A DNA stretch of 64,000 bases from a virus (taxonomy: Duplodnaviria > Caudoviricetes), in the IMG/VR virus record IMGVR_UViG_3300010376_000002, positions 9,819-73,818 of that record. One strand, written 5' to 3'. Under the pieces are notes generated by a model. It searched no databases. It saw only the letters and a program-made list of their open reading frames with translations, and had not been told where the DNA came from. The translations under genes were made by a program, and so were the position numbers. Shown here piece after piece: positions 33,936-63,567 of the stretch (positions are counted from its first letter, which is position 1; every line of letters begins with the position of its first letter).

Positions 33936-34322
33936 ATGAGCGAAAAGATCCCGCCGGAGCCTAAAAACACCATCTGCATAGACTTCGATGGAGTGTTAGC
34001 GGAGTACGACGGATGGAAAGGCGAAGAGCACTTCGGTTTTCCGATAGCTGGCGCCATCGACTTCGTTCGCGACCTGGTGAACGCCGGTTACCAAGTATGT
34101 ATCTGGACAACGCGCGCGAGTCGCGAAGGCGGCAGACGAGCATTGCAAGGTTGGTTTACCAAGCACGGGATGGATGAGACAAGGATTTCGCGACTCTGGT
34201 TTAGTGATGTGAAATTTCCCGCGATCCTCTACATCGATGACCGAGCCTATCGTTTCGATGGCATCTTTCCGACTCTGAAAGAGATCGACAATTTACGACC
34301 TTGGTGGGATAAAAAAGCGTAA
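33936..34322 (+). CDS. HAD-superfamily phosphatase
   Basis: ICIDFDGVL (DxDGV), IWTTR, LYIDDRA. Confidence 0.85.
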   Translation: MSEKIPPEPKNTICIDFDGVLAEYDGWKGEEHFGFPIAGAIDFVRDLVNAGYQVCIWTTRASREGGRRALQGWFTKHGMDETRISRLWFSDVKFPAILYIDDRAYRFDGIFPTLKEIDNLRPWWDKKA

Positions 34323-34344: not shown

Positions 34345-34376
34345 AGAAGGACGTGCCGTCAGCAGCACGTCCTTCT
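34345..34376 (+). terminator. Putative intrinsic terminator or hairpin after the HAD gene
   Basis: AGAAGGACGTGC/GCACGTCCTTCT 12-bp perfect stem followed by TGCTTT. Confidence 0.5.
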
Positions 34377-34533
34377 TGCTTTCGGCCGCCATACTACTAA
34401 ATACATATAAAGCGCGCGGTAGTAGGAACGTATCTGCCGGTCACTTCGGATCATCGGCGTTGAGCTTGAAATTCTGGATAGCTGGCGTGAACGGGTTCCT
34501 CGGATGGGCAACCATTCGCCGCGCACCTTTTTT

Positions 34534-34658
34534 GGGTCTGATTGGTAGAGTGAGGGTTGCGCCAGGAAAGCGCGATGACTTAAGCATCAGCGTCCTAGCA
34601 GACTGTAAGGTCGTCAGAAACAGCGTAGCCACTGAGGGTTCGATTCCCTCCAGATCCA
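34534..34658 (+). ncRNA. tmRNA/tRNA-Ala-like structured RNA without an anticodon arm or normal mRNA domain
   Basis: Acceptor GGGTCTG/CAGATCC + A with G3.U70; T-arm GAGGG-TTCGATT-CCCTC; helix GGTTGCGC/GCGTAGCC; 3-nt linker; stemless D-loop containing TGG. Confidence 0.65.
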
Positions 34659-34724
34659 CTCTTTGTTTGATTTCAGCTCCGACCGCGCGCAAGATCGTTT
34701 CTTGGAACGAGGCTTCGCTGCGCT

Positions 34725-37163
34725 ATGCCTGACACCTATTCCCCCGCTACGTCGTACGGACCAGGTGGTATCGGTCAATTTAACCCACCCGAACTCAACG
34801 CAGCGGGACGTCCGACTAGCAAGCCGATCTCAAGTGCTCAACAGGCTTATTCGCTCTATCTGCGGTTCAAAAAACAAAACCGCGCGCGCGCAAACCGGAA
34901 CAAAATTATTGCCGATGTGTATAACGGCAAAAGTCCTTACGACCAAAAGGAACTCGACGACCAGAACCAGGGCTGGCGCAGCAATATGTCGACCCAGTTC
35001 CTTTCTTCGATCGTTGACCGCGTCACGCCTCGTTTCACCGGCGCCATTCACGATATCAAATATCTGACCGCGGCCGAACTGCCAGACAGCTACGACGACT
35101 ATCAGAACAAGTCCGAGCTGTACCAAATGAAGACGACCGAATTGATTAGGAAGTGGTCTGGCTGGACCGACTTCGTTCAACGCGTCGTCACCGAGGATGT
35201 GCTCCAGGGCTACACCATGGCTGCGAATATCGATGAGCATAATTGGCGGCCGCGGACCTATCGCCAGGAGGATGTGTACTTTGATGAACAGACTAGCCAA
35301 GACGTTCATAGGCTCGATTGCTTCTGTATTGAGCAAGATTTTTTCATTCACGAACTCATCTCCCTGCTCGAAGAGCCGGAGACGACTGAGCGCGCCGGGT
35401 TCAACGTCGAAAACTTAAAATACGCGATCGAACACGCGATGCCGCCACGCGATGATTTGCCGTCTGATCCGCGGCAACTCTCTGATATGGCACGGGAAGC
35501 CTCGCTTTATTTCTCCTGGCATAAAGCCTCAAAAATGATCCAAACGGTTCACGTTTTTGTTCGGAATTATGTTGGTGGAATAGATCACTGGTGGGTTAAC
35601 CGCGGCACCGGTCCGCAAGGGTCGACCGGTGTCGGACCGATGACTAACGATAACGTTGGCGGAGGTGAAGAATTATTCTTTGGCGACTCCGTTGCCGAGC
35701 TAATGGAAGACATAATTACCTTGTTTACCTTCCAATCTGGCAACGACCGGCTTTTTGGTAGTAAAGGGTTAGGGAGATTGTTAGTTAACATCGCAATTTC
35801 GATCGAACGTGAACGTAATTTATATTTCGACCAACAGTATATAGCCGGCTTACTCATCGGCACGGCCGAAGAAAAAGACATTCCATTTTTAGCGCCGAAG
35901 GTGCTCTCACCTTTCTTGATCCTACCTAAAGGGTTCGAACTGATGGCGCAACAATTGCAGTTTAATCCCGAGGCGTTTGCAGGTCTTGATAACAAACTCA
36001 CCGCCATCTCAGAAATCATCGCCGGCACTTTCATACCCGAGCAAATTCAAGCCAGCGGACAAGTCGGACAAAGCGACAAGACAGCCACTGAAGCAACTAT
36101 TGACGCAACTCGTGAACAGGAGATTCGTCAGGGTATTTTAAATAGGTGGTGGAATCAGTTTACGCACTTGGTTAGTCAGATGCAGCGGAGGATTTACACT
36201 CCGCTTAACATACGGGCTGCGCTTGCTTTCGCCGAGGCACGCGACGAAGCGATAACGGCCGGACTGAAGCTCGTCGACCAAGAGATGATGGAACGTCTTT
36301 TGAAAATCGATCCGGCCGCGGGCGAGAATTATACCACTGCTCCTCCCTACGGGCGTGCTGACGGCGAAGCTGTTCAAACCATAGTGCAGTTGCTAGACGC
36401 TGGGTTAGCTCCCGATGAAATCCTCTTATTAGCTTATACGCCGGCCCAGGAATACAATACGAATGTCGGTGCAATCGAGGATAACAAGCTCCTGCAATTC
36501 GCGATGCAGGCACTCGCAAATCCCTACTGGGACCAAGGAAAATTAAATTTCGAAGCGGGCGCGGCAATGATCGGATATCGACGGGCGAAAGACTTGTTCG
36601 TGGGTGATCCATCGATGTCGACTAACCTGGAACAACAGCGAGCGCAATACTCCGAATTCACCGACATGACCCAAGGTCAAGCGATGCCCGTCTCCGACCG
36701 CGACGATCACGTGCAGCATATGACTGCATTAAATCAAAAAATGATGGCATCGCTCAACACGATGAGGGAGATCCCGCCTGAGGTGATTCCAGAACAAGAC
36801 CTCAACACGATGAAGTTGGCGCTACTTCACGGTGAGGCGCACGTGCAGGCCGAGAACAAAAAGAACTCTTCTATCAAATCCGGCGGCAAGGGTAAACGGA
36901 CCAAAGAGATACAACCACTCGCCGCTCAGCTCGGTGAAGCTAACAAAGTCTTTGAAGCGATTTTAAATAACCGCGCGAAAGCTCAAGCCGCCCAAGCAAT
37001 GGCTAATCCGATGGATCGGTCAATGCAACCTCCGGCGCATACTTGGCCATCAGGACAGCCGGCTCCGCTACCTCCTGGCACCAGGCATGGCATCGGAGGA
37101 ATGCCCACCTCGCTTCCGCCGGCGACACCCAACCCCGCTACTGGAACCACTGTACCCGCTTGA
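34725..37163 (+). CDS. Probable portal protein
   Basis: 812 aa, mostly helical, low-complexity Pro/Gln/Ala tail, followed by a small gene and a scaffold-like gene. Confidence 0.65.
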   Translation: MPDTYSPATSYGPGGIGQFNPPELNAAGRPTSKPISSAQQAYSLYLRFKKQNRARANRNKIIADVYNGKSPYDQKELDDQNQGWRSNMSTQFLSSIVDRVTPRFTGAIHDIKYLTAAELPDSYDDYQNKSELYQMKTTELIRKWSGWTDFVQRVVTEDVLQGYTMAANIDEHNWRPRTYRQEDVYFDEQTSQDVHRLDCFCIEQDFFIHELISLLEEPETTERAGFNVENLKYAIEHAMPPRDDLPSDPRQLSDMAREASLYFSWHKASKMIQTVHVFVRNYVGGIDHWWVNRGTGPQGSTGVGPMTNDNVGGGEELFFGDSVAELMEDIITLFTFQSGNDRLFGSKGLGRLLVNIAISIERERNLYFDQQYIAGLLIGTAEEKDIPFLAPKVLSPFLILPKGFELMAQQLQFNPEAFAGLDNKLTAISEIIAGTFIPEQIQASGQVGQSDKTATEATIDATREQEIRQGILNRWWNQFTHLVSQMQRRIYTPLNIRAALAFAEARDEAITAGLKLVDQEMMERLLKIDPAAGENYTTAPPYGRADGEAVQTIVQLLDAGLAPDEILLLAYTPAQEYNTNVGAIEDNKLLQFAMQALANPYWDQGKLNFEAGAAMIGYRRAKDLFVGDPSMSTNLEQQRAQYSEFTDMTQGQAMPVSDRDDHVQHMTALNQKMMASLNTMREIPPEVIPEQDLNTMKLALLHGEAHVQAENKKNSSIKSGGKGKRTKEIQPLAAQLGEANKVFEAILNNRAKAQAAQAMANPMDRSMQPPAHTWPSGQPAPLPPGTRHGIGGMPTSLPPATPNPATGTTVPA

Positions 37164-47798: not shown

Positions 47799-49055
47799 TT
47801 AGATGGTTAAGCTAATTCCGCCTCCGGTTCCGGTAGTACCCGGATAACCTAAGCAGGTAGCAAAACCAAAGTCTGGTTGACATCTTTGGTAGATAATAGG
47901 AATCACCGCATGCGGGCGTTCGGGCCTATACGCACGTGTTACTTGATACAGGTGGTAGCCAAAATCGCCAAAGGCGTTACAGTCGTTATCCCTCAGCACG
48001 ACGAACTCAAGCTCTCCTTGACTATACTGCGGCGGAAATTTCCACTCACCCGCGCCCGTGTATTGTTCCGGAACTAACCGGCGGAAACTATTACTAAACA
48101 CCATGAAAAGAACTTCATACATAGCATTTAGATAGTCAGGGTTAGCTCGCGCGCCGATACCTTTACTAACTTGCACTGCAATTTCGGGCTCAATGAAGTC
48201 AGGAATTAACTGACCATTTAACAAACCGAAAGTGTTAAAGCGCAGAGGCTGCTGATCGATGCCTAGGGCGACCCCCTGGTACGGTCCAGACCAGGTGTAG
48301 CCTGTTAAAGTCTCTTCACCAAGCGTGTATTTACCCGTGGTTAATGCACGCATATCGTACCTGACATTCAGGTCCGCGCGTAAGTTATCAATGATATCAG
48401 CACCCGCAATTACCTTAACAATGGTGCCGGCTTCGCTCTCAAACGGTTCGCAGAGTAGGTTCTCATGCGCCCACGTTTCTACGTACTTCAGGAAGGGGAA
48501 CGTAACCGCTGTGTCCGGCGGCGTATCGTCGTTCATGCTAACATCGATCGCTTGCACATCTCCACTAACCATCTGCGGGAAAGTGTAGGTAGTGTTACAT
48601 TTGATCTTAACACCACTGCGCAAAAACAATTGGCTCCTAACATCAATGTTAAGAAAATATAACATTTGTTTTTGCAGCGCATCTTGGGTAGCAGAATAAC
48701 TACCTTGGAAAGCCGACCGCATTTGCTTAATGCAAACTTTTGGTCCGCGGCCGCGCACAGTTCCTAACTTGGTAGTATATTCTGTACTACCCGTTTCGGC
48801 CACCTGCCCGAGGTCCGCGCATGAATCCACATCGTTGAAGAAAGTGGGTAATACTAACGAATGTCCTAACACCGGACGTTCCATCACGATGTTACGTTGT
48901 TCGTCACTAACAGCGCTCTCGAACACTCCGCCATCGAGCACGTCCGCGTAAGGTGCCCGCCTCATCAGGAGCAAGGTAATGTTACCAACGAGACGTAAAA
49001 TATCGCGTGAGGCAAAATCGATAACTGCCGCAGGGCTAAGTAGGCAATCGCCCAT
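47799..49055 (-). CDS. Probable major capsid protein
   Basis: 418 aa, long non-coding leader, heads the minus-strand structural operon; no other capsid candidate seen. Confidence 0.65.
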   Translation of the reverse strand: MGDCLLSPAAVIDFASRDILRLVGNITLLLMRRAPYADVLDGGVFESAVSDEQRNIVMERPVLGHSLVLPTFFNDVDSCADLGQVAETGSTEYTTKLGTVRGRGPKVCIKQMRSAFQGSYSATQDALQKQMLYFLNIDVRSQLFLRSGVKIKCNTTYTFPQMVSGDVQAIDVSMNDDTPPDTAVTFPFLKYVETWAHENLLCEPFESEAGTIVKVIAGADIIDNLRADLNVRYDMRALTTGKYTLGEETLTGYTWSGPYQGVALGIDQQPLRFNTFGLLNGQLIPDFIEPEIAVQVSKGIGARANPDYLNAMYEVLFMVFSNSFRRLVPEQYTGAGEWKFPPQYSQGELEFVVLRDNDCNAFGDFGYHLYQVTRAYRPERPHAVIPIIYQRCQPDFGFATCLGYPGTTGTGGGISLTI

Positions 49056-60757: not shown

Positions 60758-61996
60758 GTGGACACTCAAGCCTACTATGTTAACTACGATCGATCTTGCC
60801 TCCGTGCTGAGCGTGCTCGCCACTTGTGGCGTCTGCCTTATTCCACTTTGCTCGAGTTCGGGATCTCCAGCTACCGGGACATCACCGAACTCGATACCAT
60901 CGGCATCCCGGTTTGGGTCGCGTACCGACCACCGAGCACCTCGATCAGCGTAACGTGCGGCAAATCGATTGATCCGCTTCTGGCTTTTGCGGGCGCAATT
61001 ACCGAAGCACTCGAGTTTTGGGCGGCTGAAAACCCCAAGGATAGTCCCTGCACTCTGTGTGCTTATTCGCGTCTAAAGGAGAAAACAGAAGCCGAGCATT
61101 TAGCACTCGAAGACTATCCCTTGGCCCGTGATAACATCATCGACGAGCAAACACCGATTGCTTGGGAGCTAGTCACTAAGCTTGGCGCCGGCGCCAAAAC
61201 CGTTTGGATGCCCTCTAACGTGATTTGGTTAGTTGATCGCGCCCAAGCTCAGTTTCAAGACGTGCAGCAAAGCTCAAATGGCTTAGCGGCAGGTTGCACT
61301 CTGGAAGATGCACTTCTGCAAGCTATCTATGAGCTAGTCGAGCGTGACGGTTGGACGATCAACGAACATATTCGCGAGGTGACCGGCCGATTTCCGCGCA
61401 AGATCAACCTCGCTAACCTCCCTTCGGAACTCGCCGATCTGGTCGCTAAGATGCGGGCCGCCGGCTGTCATCCGTTTTTGTTCGACTGCAAAAGCAATTT
61501 GGAAATCCCGGTCATCGGCTGCGCTCTCTTTGACGACGACAACGTCGGCACCTTCGGTGGCTATGGTTGTCACCTTTCTCCTCGTGTCGCGGCTGGGCGG
61601 GCGCTAACCGAGGCTGCGCAATCGCGGCTTTGCTACATTTCCGGAGCTCGGGACGATTTGTATCGACGCGATTTTCTTCTAATGAAGCGTAGCTCAAGTA
61701 AGTGGATTGTCTCGCAACTCGAAGCCCTGAAACCGACTTACAGAACTTGGGCCGAATATCCGGCCAAGTATGAAAGCTTCAACTCCGTTCGCGACGAACT
61801 GATGGAACTAGTGAAAATTCTCACGAACCAGCGAATCGACCTCTACTACAAAACACTGCACACTTTGGAACTCGGAGGCGAATCCGTCGTGGTTGTCAAA
61901 GCAATCGCCCCAAAACTCGAAGGCGTTTGGTGCGGCTCTTGGCAAACTACCGGACGGGCTACTTCACACTTAGCAAATGAACTTGGAACAACCTAA
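60758..61996 (+). CDS. ycaO: YcaO-family ATP-dependent amide-activating enzyme, TfuA-associated type
   Basis: ITELDTIGIPVW, GKS..AITEALE, SSNGLAAG.TLEDALLQAIYELVERDG, GGYGCH..VAAGRALTEAAQSRL.YISGARDDL. Confidence 0.93.
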   Translation: MDTQAYYVNYDRSCLRAERARHLWRLPYSTLLEFGISSYRDITELDTIGIPVWVAYRPPSTSISVTCGKSIDPLLAFAGAITEALEFWAAENPKDSPCTLCAYSRLKEKTEAEHLALEDYPLARDNIIDEQTPIAWELVTKLGAGAKTVWMPSNVIWLVDRAQAQFQDVQQSSNGLAAGCTLEDALLQAIYELVERDGWTINEHIREVTGRFPRKINLANLPSELADLVAKMRAAGCHPFLFDCKSNLEIPVIGCALFDDDNVGTFGGYGCHLSPRVAAGRALTEAAQSRLCYISGARDDLYRRDFLLMKRSSSKWIVSQLEALKPTYRTWAEYPAKYESFNSVRDELMELVKILTNQRIDLYYKTLHTLELGGESVVVVKAIAPKLEGVWCGSWQTTGRATSHLANELGTT

Positions 61997-62234
61997 AAGT
62001 TATACTTGCCCGAAGTGCGGAATGGTCAGCTATAATCCGTATGACATCCGCGACAAATATTGTGGCAACTGTCATCTCTTCGAAGGCGAGAGGAGACTTT
62101 TCTTTAAAGCTGCGGATGGGCGACTGTTTGAGTGTCCGATTGACATCGGACTTCCCAAGACAATGGACGAATTCCAACGACAATTGCTCGAACTAGCCCA
62201 TCGAATGGAAGAGGAACGTGGACGACCAACCTGA
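61977..62234 (+). CDS. Small Zn-ribbon protein between ycaO and tfuA
   Basis: TCPKCG...YCGNCH. Confidence 0.65.
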   Translation: MNLEQPKSYTCPKCGMVSYNPYDIRDKYCGNCHLFEGERRLFFKAADGRLFECPIDIGLPKTMDEFQRQLLELAHRMEEERGRPT

Positions 62235-63567
62235 GAAAGTCCTCATCTACGCCGGGCCGAGTCTCGACTACGGCACGATTGCCGAACAGCTTCCCGATTG
62301 CGAAGTCATCGTCAAAGGCCCGGTGCGCCACGGTGACTTCTCAACCGACTTGCTCGAGTGCGAACCTTCGCACGTCCTAATCATCGAAGGACTCTTTCAT
62401 CAAAACCTCAGTGTCTGGCACAAGGAGATTGTGTGGGCACTGCAAATGCCAGGCATCAAAGGCATCTACGGTGCGGCCTCGATGGGCGCATTGCGCGCGG
62501 CCGATTTGGCGCCGTATGGGATGATTGGCTGCGGCCGCATCTTCCGTTGGTTCTACGAAGGGATCACTTTCAAAGAAGCGGACGTCGCGTCTGCTTACGG
62601 TTTACGTACCGATGCCAATGTCATCTCGAGTGCTCTCACTGTTCCGATGGTCAACGTTTACGGTGCACTTCTCAAAGCGCTCGAAGACGGAGTAATCGAC
62701 GAAGGGACCGCAGAATATTTTGTCAGGCAAGAACGCGCAGTCCACTGGACGCAACGCACGCTTCGGCATATGGACCCGAACCTTGCGAAACTGATCGAGC
62801 AGCACGACCAGAAAAAGATCGACGCTCTCGAACTCTTATGCACCTTTCGCAAACTCGAGCCGGAGCCCGGTGCTACGAAGCTCGGCATCGAGGCTCTCTC
62901 GGGTTTGTTTACCGCCCAGTTTGAGCGCGATCGCTCGGTCAACGTCGGCGGCCGCCCGGTCAAGCTTCAGGATTTGGATGCGTTCGTGATGCTTCACGAT
63001 CAGGAGTACGACCAGCACTCGGCAAATGCCGATTACCGGATCCTGGCGCTAATGCTTGCCGACATCTACCGCATTACTCTTTCCTACACCGAACTCGATA
63101 CCGAGTGGCAACGCTTTAACGTCCGAATGAATCTGCGTTCGCTCGAAGAGCACAACCAATGGCTCAAGGACAACCATGTTAACGCCCGCGAATTGGTGCG
63201 AATTTTGTCAGACGAGGTACGGCTTCGGAAGTTGCGCCGGGCGCTTATGGTGCGTTCTGGGCCAAGGCGACATACCCAGAGACTCCTTGACTATCTCAAG
63301 CTTAACCGGAACTACACCTATTGGGCTAACGCCGCGGCCGCGCACGAAGAACTCATCGCCCAGAAAGGCGGAGAAGAATCACTCGAGCTCGGCGGTGAAA
63401 CCAACGTAGCAATCCTACTGAATCAGCACGCGCGTAAAGCTGGATTGACGATCCCTACTAGTCTGGGAGAATATGTCCGCGAGGCAGGCTTTGGAACGGT
63501 GCGCGAACTGATGGTCGCGTTATCGCGCGACAAGCTTGGCGACAATGCCGAACTTCCTCGACAATAG
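62218..63567 (+). CDS. tfuA: TfuA-like protein with a ~200-aa helical C-terminal extension
   Basis: YAGPSL, PVRHGD, VWHKEI..AL, YGAASMGALRAADL..YGMIGCGRIF, VPMVNV. Confidence 0.93.
   Translation: MDDQPEKVLIYAGPSLDYGTIAEQLPDCEVIVKGPVRHGDFSTDLLECEPSHVLIIEGLFHQNLSVWHKEIVWALQMPGIKGIYGAASMGALRAADLAPYGMIGCGRIFRWFYEGITFKEADVASAYGLRTDANVISSALTVPMVNVYGALLKALEDGVIDEGTAEYFVRQERAVHWTQRTLRHMDPNLAKLIEQHDQKKIDALELLCTFRKLEPEPGATKLGIEALSGLFTAQFERDRSVNVGGRPVKLQDLDAFVMLHDQEYDQHSANADYRILALMLADIYRITLSYTELDTEWQRFNVRMNLRSLEEHNQWLKDNHVNARELVRILSDEVRLRKLRRALMVRSGPRRHTQRLLDYLKLNRNYTYWANAAAAHEELIAQKGGEESLELGGETNVAILLNQHARKAGLTIPTSLGEYVREAGFGTVRELMVALSRDKLGDNAELPRQ

Follow-up and report, generated by a model that had tools for sequence, protein, structure and literature searches.

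What kind of RNA lies in front of the probable portal gene of an uncultivated phage, and what might it do there? The stretch of DNA analyzed here (64,000 nucleotides [nt]; hereafter the window) covers positions 9819-73818 of the 73.8-kb IMG/VR record IMGVR_UViG_3300010376_000002, which has direct terminal repeats and is rated complete. The locus in question, element B, is a 125-nt element on the plus strand at 34534-34658 in this single phage, and is preceded by a second tRNA-shaped RNA, element A. An initial annotation, made from the letters alone, had described element B as a miniature RNA resembling transfer-messenger RNA (tmRNA), with alanine identity and no normal mRNA domain. In the present analysis, element B is a real, unusual tRNA-derived element and not a demonstrable tmRNA. 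Our tentative preference, short of an even chance, is that it is processed like a tRNA, can be charged with alanine, does not decode, and acts like a tag-less tmRNA decoy.

Anatomy of element B

The initial annotation proved right base for base, and each part was found where it had been placed (Table 1). The acceptor stem (34534-34540/34651-34657) consists of 7 bp, namely six Watson-Crick pairs and G34536.T34655, which corresponds to G3.U70 and is the sole wobble. The bases 3' of the discriminator A34658 are CTC; CCA is not encoded, as had been noted. The D-loop includes the tRNA D-loop motif TTGGTAGAG, which was also seen in genuine tRNAs among the pattern matches in JGI metagenomes. The 8-bp helix behind it can be extended to 10 bp (A34553-T34633 and G34554-C34632, with A34631 bulged), and the core helices are all perfect (7/7, 5/5 and 8/8). 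The 60-nt insert holds a hairpin at 34564-34596 (loop ACUUAAG) with 11 pairs in three segments, followed by a weak second hairpin.

The claim that a normal mRNA or tag domain is missing was borne out as well. None of the frames in element B is as long as a normal tag: reading from GCA at 34598 meets no stop before the T-arm, and the closed frames comprise only 2-4 codons (GCG CGA TGA; GCA TCA GCG TCC TAG). Judged by eye, only a 4-bp pseudoknot is possible, and there is no PK1.

Table 1. Coordinates of elements A and B and of flanking features in the window.
Feature	Position	Strand	Remarks
Terminator-like hairpin, 11 bp, 8-nt loop, T-rich tail	34346..34383	+	ends upstream gene 33936-34322
AT-rich stretch of 20 nt, candidate promoter region	34388..34407	+	missing from L044 (alignment)
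Left GCGCG direct repeat	34412..34416	.	junctions compared with L044:165-205
Element A, second tRNA-shaped RNA	34414..34527	+	stem GCGCGGT/GCCGCGC, 7 bp
T6 spacer between elements A and B	34528..34533	+	puts U at -1 of element B
Element B, acceptor stem 5' strand GGGTCTG	34534..34540	+	G3 at 34536; pair probability 1.0 in isolation
Element B, stemless D-loop ATTGGTAGAGTGAG	34541..34554	+	14 nt, unpaired; G18G19-like GG at 34544-34545
Element B, helix and 60-nt insert	34555..34630	+	8 bp (34555-34562/34623-34630), 2 G.U
Element B, linker ACT	34631..34633	+	3 nt
Element B, T-arm GAGGG-TTCGATT-CCCTC	34634..34650	+	directly abuts acceptor 3' strand
Element B, acceptor 3' strand CAGATCC and discriminator A	34651..34658	+	U70 at 34655, A at 34658
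U-rich trailer	34659..34689	+	ends with right GCGCG repeat 34685-34689
Gene for 812-amino-acid protein, probable portal	34725..37163	+	starts 66 nt 3' of element B

Folded alone, element B had a minimum free energy (MFE) of -42.5 kcal/mol (z = -1.8) and a tRNA-like MFE shape. Pair probabilities were 0.98-1.0 for the acceptor, the 8-bp helix and the T-arm, and 0.62 for the internal hairpin. A loosely defined architecture, a T-arm abutting a 7-bp acceptor, arose in 6% of simulated 64-kb windows. By a rough estimate, the exact T-loop 11-mer GGTTCGATTCC together with the D-loop 9-mer TTGGTAGAG right after the acceptor strand has a chance probability below 1e-6, and because both exact motifs are present with the latter directly behind the acceptor strand, the probability that element B arose by chance is negligible. 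An assembly artefact is unlikely, since an independent 73.9-kb ENA contig (ERZ27264385) encoding an identical 812-amino-acid (aa) protein shows the same 402-nt gap before it.

Proposed maturation and role

RNase P, the CCA-adding enzyme and EF-Tu need no more of a tRNA than its acceptor/T-arm half, and the same is true of AlaRS when that half carries G3.U70. In element B, U stands at -1, the coaxial stack of 12 bp is perfect, and A73 and G3.U70 are both present; it is on these features, combined with the established enzymology, that a processed and charged mimic acting in trans is favored. Such a mimic would keep the top half of a tRNA (acceptor stem, T-arm and GG D-loop) after loss of the D stem, while the anticodon arm would have been replaced by the 8-10-bp helix and the insert, too long to reach the decoding centre. 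RNase P would cut the transcript before G34534, the 3' end would be trimmed to A34658, and CCA would be added by the host CCA-adding enzyme. AlaRS could charge the product with alanine, G3.U70 and A73 being sufficient even on minihelices. Lacking an anticodon, the alanyl mimic would act in trans on those host factors that deal with RNAs of this kind; its likeliest role would be to compete for SmpB, EF-Tu or stalled ribosomes, so that trans-translation would be damped. Loss of the D stem and of the anticodon loop has left the helices perfect, which suggests that the top half of the tRNA was under selection in the donor lineage. The only wobble, placed at 3:70 alongside A73 and these helices, also argues for selection.

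The tRNA-like domain (TLD) of tmRNA comprises an acceptor stem with G3.U70/A73, a T stem-loop, a stemless reduced D-loop and the helix H2. The contact between its D-loop and T-loop is required for SmpB, H2 mimics a long variable arm, and the AlaRS identity set of G3.U70 with A73 is conserved throughout the ssrA genes (PMC3968760, PMC8363625). In E. coli tmRNA, SmpB contacts A15, U17, G19 and A334, which lie within the consensus GGaUUCGAC...GGAC (PMC8363625). The architecture of element B agrees with this domain, as had been claimed: G3.U70 is combined with the discriminator A, the T-arm abuts the acceptor, and a stemless D-loop with GG is followed by a long helix (8-10 bp) from the elbow.

Several observations weigh against the proposed role or against kinship with tmRNA. 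The Rfam tmRNA model (RF00023, clan CL00001), which had been expected to hit both ends, gave a partial match to the T-arm only, at 11.7 bits where the gathering threshold is 47; in E-value mode, 34634-34650 matched model positions 347-363. The TLD of mycobacteriophage DS6A, run as a positive control, scored 43.2 bits end to end (model positions 1-374). Element B thus lacks an end-to-end covariance score in addition to a tag frame and PK1. The SmpB consensus UUCGAC...GGAC is replaced by AGAGUGA...CCACU, leaving only possible equivalents of G19-A20 and A-C; at the SmpB site element B has GGUAGAGUGA...CCACU, where DS6A keeps CGAC...GCAC. Its D-loop, UUGGUAGAG, is tRNA-like and not tmRNA-like, and equals an ordinary tRNA D-loop minus the 5' stem strand. 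The description as a tmRNA-like RNA holds, then, for the TLD architecture, and fails for the family model and the SmpB-contact nucleotides; the idea of an SmpB decoy keeps its published precedent in DS6A and loses the contact consensus. G3.U70 is one transition away from the A3-U70 of a tRNA-Leu and may be accidental. When flanks were included in the folding, the acceptor stem lay outside the MFE fold, although the alternative fold was better by only about 2 kcal/mol. Element B is moreover a singleton: 27 related virus records, of which seven are at least 90% complete, gave no second copy, and neither did IMG/VR, the JGI metagenomes and 185,579 species genomes. With a single genome behind it, the case carries limited weight, and transcription and charging, like processing and target, were inferred. 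Judging from the sequence, a tRNA origin appears at least as likely as a tmRNA origin.

Relation to tRNA genes

Neither a canonical tRNA nor a known Rfam family accounts for element B in full. ARAGORN at default settings and Rfam at gathering thresholds called no tRNA and no tmRNA over the window, and the cloverleaf of RF00005, with its D stem, 5-bp anticodon stem and U33 loop, is not formed. Unlike canonical phage tRNAs, element B has no D stem, no properly spaced 7-nt anticodon loop and no long variable arm, and 3 nt precede its T stem, compared with 4-5 or more in canonical tRNAs. When element B alone was compared with GenBank phages, it matched only the T-arm/acceptor ends of tRNAs. The best database match of the 3' half was a T5-like phage tRNA-Leu(TAA), with the 3' 26 nt being 96% identical. 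In the tRNA-Leu(TAA) of the T5-like Salmonella phage S147, the acceptor is identical except for A3-U70 in place of G3.U70, the T-arm agrees at 16/17 positions, and the discriminator A and a GGTAGA-like D-loop motif are shared. The hairpin loop of element B (ACUUAAG) contains CUUAA and resembles the tRNA-Leu anticodon loop CUUAAAA, shifted by one.

Such likeness would also be expected from a functionless relic, an explanation that we regard as doubtful but take seriously. Indels would have remodelled a phage tRNA gene, possibly one of the tRNA-Leu(UAA) type, which lost the 5' D-stem strand and gained about 55 nt in the anticodon region; illegitimate recombination would have carried it into this genome too recently for decay to have set in. 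The match to tRNA-Leu(TAA), the anticodon-like hairpin loop and the D-loop that reads as a tRNA D-loop minus its 5' stem strand all fit this course of events. So do the restriction to one lineage, the absence from a relative with a 90% identical portal, the 5-nt GCGCG microhomology flanking the block described below, and the occurrence of tRNA genes, rare and of odd forms, in this phage family. Neutral decay, however, is hard to reconcile with three separate indels accompanied by zero substitutions in 20 core bp, with a helix below the elbow that gained three perfect pairs instead of eroding, or with a single wobble exactly at 3:70.

A decoding tRNA with a small intron was suggested by ARAGORN when introns were allowed and the threshold was relaxed to 80-85% of normal: tRNA-Ser(GGA) with a 53-nt intron at 37/38, which is the canonical intron position. 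We consider it very unlikely that this call describes the element. There was no call at the default or 90% threshold and no Rfam tRNA match, A33 stands in place of the near-universal U33, and the D stem would have 3 pairs including a mismatch. No bulge-helix-bulge could be drawn by eye around 34568/69 and 34621/22, and a splicing endonuclease is absent from bacterial hosts; weak indications of a bacterial virus come from an intrinsic-terminator-like hairpin and a RecT-like annealing protein.

Phage genomes frequently include the T-arm and acceptor 3' end of the tRNA gene that they target, and element B might by this token be an attP-type integration site derived from the 3' end of a tRNA or tmRNA gene of the host. 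This is highly improbable, given that the 5' acceptor strand and the D-loop are also present, that no integrase was found in the Pfam/PHROG survey, that the genome has direct terminal repeats, and that none of the bacterial genomes among the 185,579 species genomes scanned contains the 3' 23-mer.

Two tRNAs were noted in passing. The 3' 23-mer did occur in one Nanoarchaeota tRNA, its only match in the species genomes: in a metagenome-assembled genome (L072:1388-1475), this archaeal tRNA has an identical 23-nt T-arm and acceptor 3' end, an identity judged to be a coincidence because the genome is AT-rich and the 5' part is different. A related phage encodes a 99-nt tRNA with a long variable arm (L086:1500-1598; G019:44179-44275), which scored 38 bits on the Rfam tRNA model and was read by ARAGORN with a 4-nt anticodon (tacg), the isotype being unassigned.

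Distribution and the inserted block

IMG/VR, the JGI metagenomes and the species genomes were scanned with exact patterns. In IMG/VR, the T-arm plus acceptor 25-mer had 0 matches, the D-loop 16-mer had 5 chance matches, and the D-loop...T-loop pattern had 1 chance match, in a tRNA pair. The last pattern returned 33 matches in the JGI metagenomes, 0 of them with a pairing acceptor stem. A scan of all fetched loci for the T-arm plus acceptor architecture recovered only element B, the DS6A TLD and one real tRNA. A covariance model built on element B (R1; self-score 160 bits) found nothing in the 27 related records.

Sites upstream of eight portal homologues are without element B, six of these sites having been read as sequence or as gap size (L001-L004, L044, L079). 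In the P0002 contig, a 34-kb Logan contig (SRR490130) whose portal is 83% identical, the gap is 206 nt and too short for the block. The closest relative (L044; portal 90% identical) shares the terminator hairpin and the 5' untranslated region and lacks 34417-34689 (273 nt). This 273-nt block is bounded by GCGCG at 34412-34416 and 34685-34689 and holds both elements, an arrangement which suggests that microhomology mediated its gain or loss. Upstream of the terminator, the window phage and L044 carry different genes, and a third relative has yet another, so the slot is taken to be a variable accessory one, and a block standing behind a terminator in such a gene-variable slot would be typical of accessory cassettes. 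From these comparisons element B appears to have entered the phage recently, together with element A.

The initial annotation had already picked out element A as a separate feature, and the present analysis agrees with it. Element A has 65 nt closed off by an arm of 6 bp, and a 6-bp GCAA-tetraloop hairpin that abuts the 3' strand, followed by A-CC and T6. Its MFE was -47.9 kcal/mol (z = -3.1), and pair probabilities were 0.96-1.0 even with flanks. Compared with a copy in the genome G001 (L006:1441-1550), 7/20 pairs are changed on both sides in a compensatory manner, and the region thus appears to evolve like RNA. The G001 copy lies at a non-syntenic site, directly after the stop codon of a gene and with no element B behind it, and the two copies share the A-CC-T6 end. 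No Rfam match was obtained, and a motif scan of IMG/VR returned only the known G001 copy. A 118-aa open reading frame (ORF) at 34376-34732, which spans element A and has no Pfam family, was rejected as a gene because the two copies of element A differ by indels that are not multiples of three and by compensatory pair changes.

The tandem arrangement raises the question of whether both elements might be tRNA-shaped signals for processing or termination, placed where the early module meets the structural one. By analogy with t-elements and mascRNA, cuts by RNase P and 3' nucleases would then define where the upstream RNA ends and where the portal mRNA begins. Plant mitochondrial t-elements, which are tRNA-like processing signals, are an established precedent (PMC1920247). 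In structure and in its 66-nt distance from the portal start codon, element B does look like an acceptor/T-arm mimic beside a transcript end. It follows just after a terminator, each of the two tandem modules is followed by a U-rich tract, the A-CC-T6 end of element A is kept in both genomes, and the G001 copy directly follows a stop codon. At least eight relatives, including L001-L004, L044, L079 and the P0002 contig, nevertheless manage without the block at this site, and a processing signal would need neither G3.U70 nor a GG D-loop. We therefore rate this role in cis as rather unlikely.

In a bolder version of the mimic, which seems quite unlikely, elements A and B would form a mobile phage cassette that encodes two tRNA-shaped RNAs, neither with an anticodon and both matured by the tRNA machinery of the host. 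Element A would end in A-CC, ready for CCA, and element B would be alanylated, and the pair would jam ribosome rescue, or feed in untemplated alanine, by a tRNA-derived route independent of tmRNA.

Genomic setting and neighbouring genes

According to the Pfam/PHROG survey, the window encodes a helicase, an HNH/NUMOD4 endonuclease, a RecT-like protein, a large terminase, tail-collar proteins and a YcaO-TfuA pair. The window region and the 812-aa protein had no DNA or protein match among GenBank phages, and no tRNA gene was called in the phage (ARAGORN, Rfam). The initial annotation had placed a portal gene 66 nt downstream of element B. The distance is correct and the product is plausibly a portal, as predicted from leads in the ESM Atlas only: structural neighbours of the 812-aa protein carry SU10/P22 portal families (score 0.97, TM 0.53), and the protein itself has no Pfam or PHROG match. 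Its family is large, with members in phage contigs of about 75 kb.

The terminator-like hairpin was seen in predicted folds and is kept in L044 despite the different upstream gene. The AT-rich stretch behind it occurs once in the window, and no sigma-70 consensus was found in it.

The gene directly upstream of the RNA block (33936-34322, plus strand) encodes a 128-aa protein with a DxDG (HAD-type) motif. Its PHROG matches are phosphoheptose isomerase and polynucleotide kinase, and a function as an RNA-end phosphatase is possible on the basis of these similarities; close relatives have unrelated genes in its place. YcaO (E = 9e-55) and TfuA (E = 1e-28) were detected in the Pfam survey of the window. 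They correspond to a phage-encoded thioamidation pair, for which the location 60758-63567 (plus strand) was given by the initial annotation only.

That the accessory slot adjoins an HAD phosphatase or polynucleotide-kinase-like gene (PHROG) is one point in favour of a further role, as decoy or bait for a tRNA-targeting defence or toxin that recognizes the acceptor/T-arm half, such as toxins that modify or cleave the acceptor end, or sensors that respond to tRNA fragments. Element B retains only the tRNA top half, and phage proteins are known to engage tRNA or tmRNA fragments in counter-defence (PMC11662646). Without an anticodon loop, however, it cannot bait anticodon nucleases, and no partner gene was found: the Pfam survey of 66 ORFs contained no RNA ligase, CCA-adding enzyme or SmpB. 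Such a defensive role is improbable in our estimation.

Comparison with known systems

Phage T4 produces the 'species 1 and 2' RNAs, which are stable, 120-140 nt long, have tRNA-like ends, and are handled by tRNA-processing enzymes. They belong to the T4 tRNA cluster and sit among real tRNA genes, whereas the window phage has none. In the bacterial Y RNA YrlA, the Ro60-binding stem is reportedly built from the two ends of the RNA, with the tRNA-like module lying inside, unlike element B, whose ends form the acceptor stem. Both are non-coding mimics of the tRNA acceptor, T and D region, and YrlA also occurs in phages (PMC4201824). A Y RNA identity was rejected on the position of the ends, together with the absence of a Ro60/TROVE or RtcB family from the Pfam survey of the window and of an Rfam Y RNA match.

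T-elements and the mascRNA of MALAT1 are likewise non-decoding acceptor/T-arm mimics next to an mRNA end, and like them element B is an expected substrate of RNase P and 3' nucleases. They act in organelles or nuclei and their processing has been mapped experimentally. On element B, the Rfam mascRNA model scored only 12.7 bits (E = 8).

An unannotated 56-nt element was also observed in Mycobacterium phage Veracruz (L087:378-439, about 48970-49031, minus strand) and likewise in about 17 related phages. It has a perfect acceptor-like stem of 7 bp (GGATCGG/CCGATCC) and a T-arm (GAGGG-TTCGATG-CCCTT) with a 24-nt join, followed by G-C-T6, and it had no Rfam match. From its sequence it looks like a truncated tRNA mimic or a tRNA-shaped terminator.

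The closest parallel is DS6A. Tag-less tmRNAs, that is, those without a coding sequence, have been described from jakobid mitochondria, Mallomonadaceae plastids and phage DS6A, and the TLD-only tmRNA of DS6A inhibits E. coli tmRNA (PMC4131195, PMC11915505). We located the DS6A TLD at L042:28478-28560; it is unannotated in GenBank, was missed by ARAGORN, and its 43.2 bits fall below the gathering threshold of 47. DS6A also encodes an RtcB-like RNA ligase. Both RNAs are phage-borne and combine a G3.U70/A73 acceptor, a T-arm, a stemless GG D-loop and an elbow helix with the absence of a tag frame, and CCA is not fully encoded in either (CTA in DS6A, CTC in element B). DS6A has 83 nt with a 20-nt insert and G4-C69, whereas element B has 125 nt with a structured 60-nt insert and U4-A69, and the covariance model of element B does not match DS6A. 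Inhibition of host trans-translation has experimental backing for DS6A and, by analogy, is a proposed role for element B. If the RNA is made and charged, element B would be the second phage case of a tag-less, alanine-accepting tRNA mimic, apparently an independent one that was built from a tRNA and not inherited from tmRNA. This would suggest that interference with trans-translation, or with readers of the tRNA top half, is a recurring phage strategy. More such elements may sit in phage genomes, because ARAGORN and the Rfam models miss them. Tag-less tmRNAs were known before, and to the tag-less tRNA-like mimics of phages element B adds a variant.

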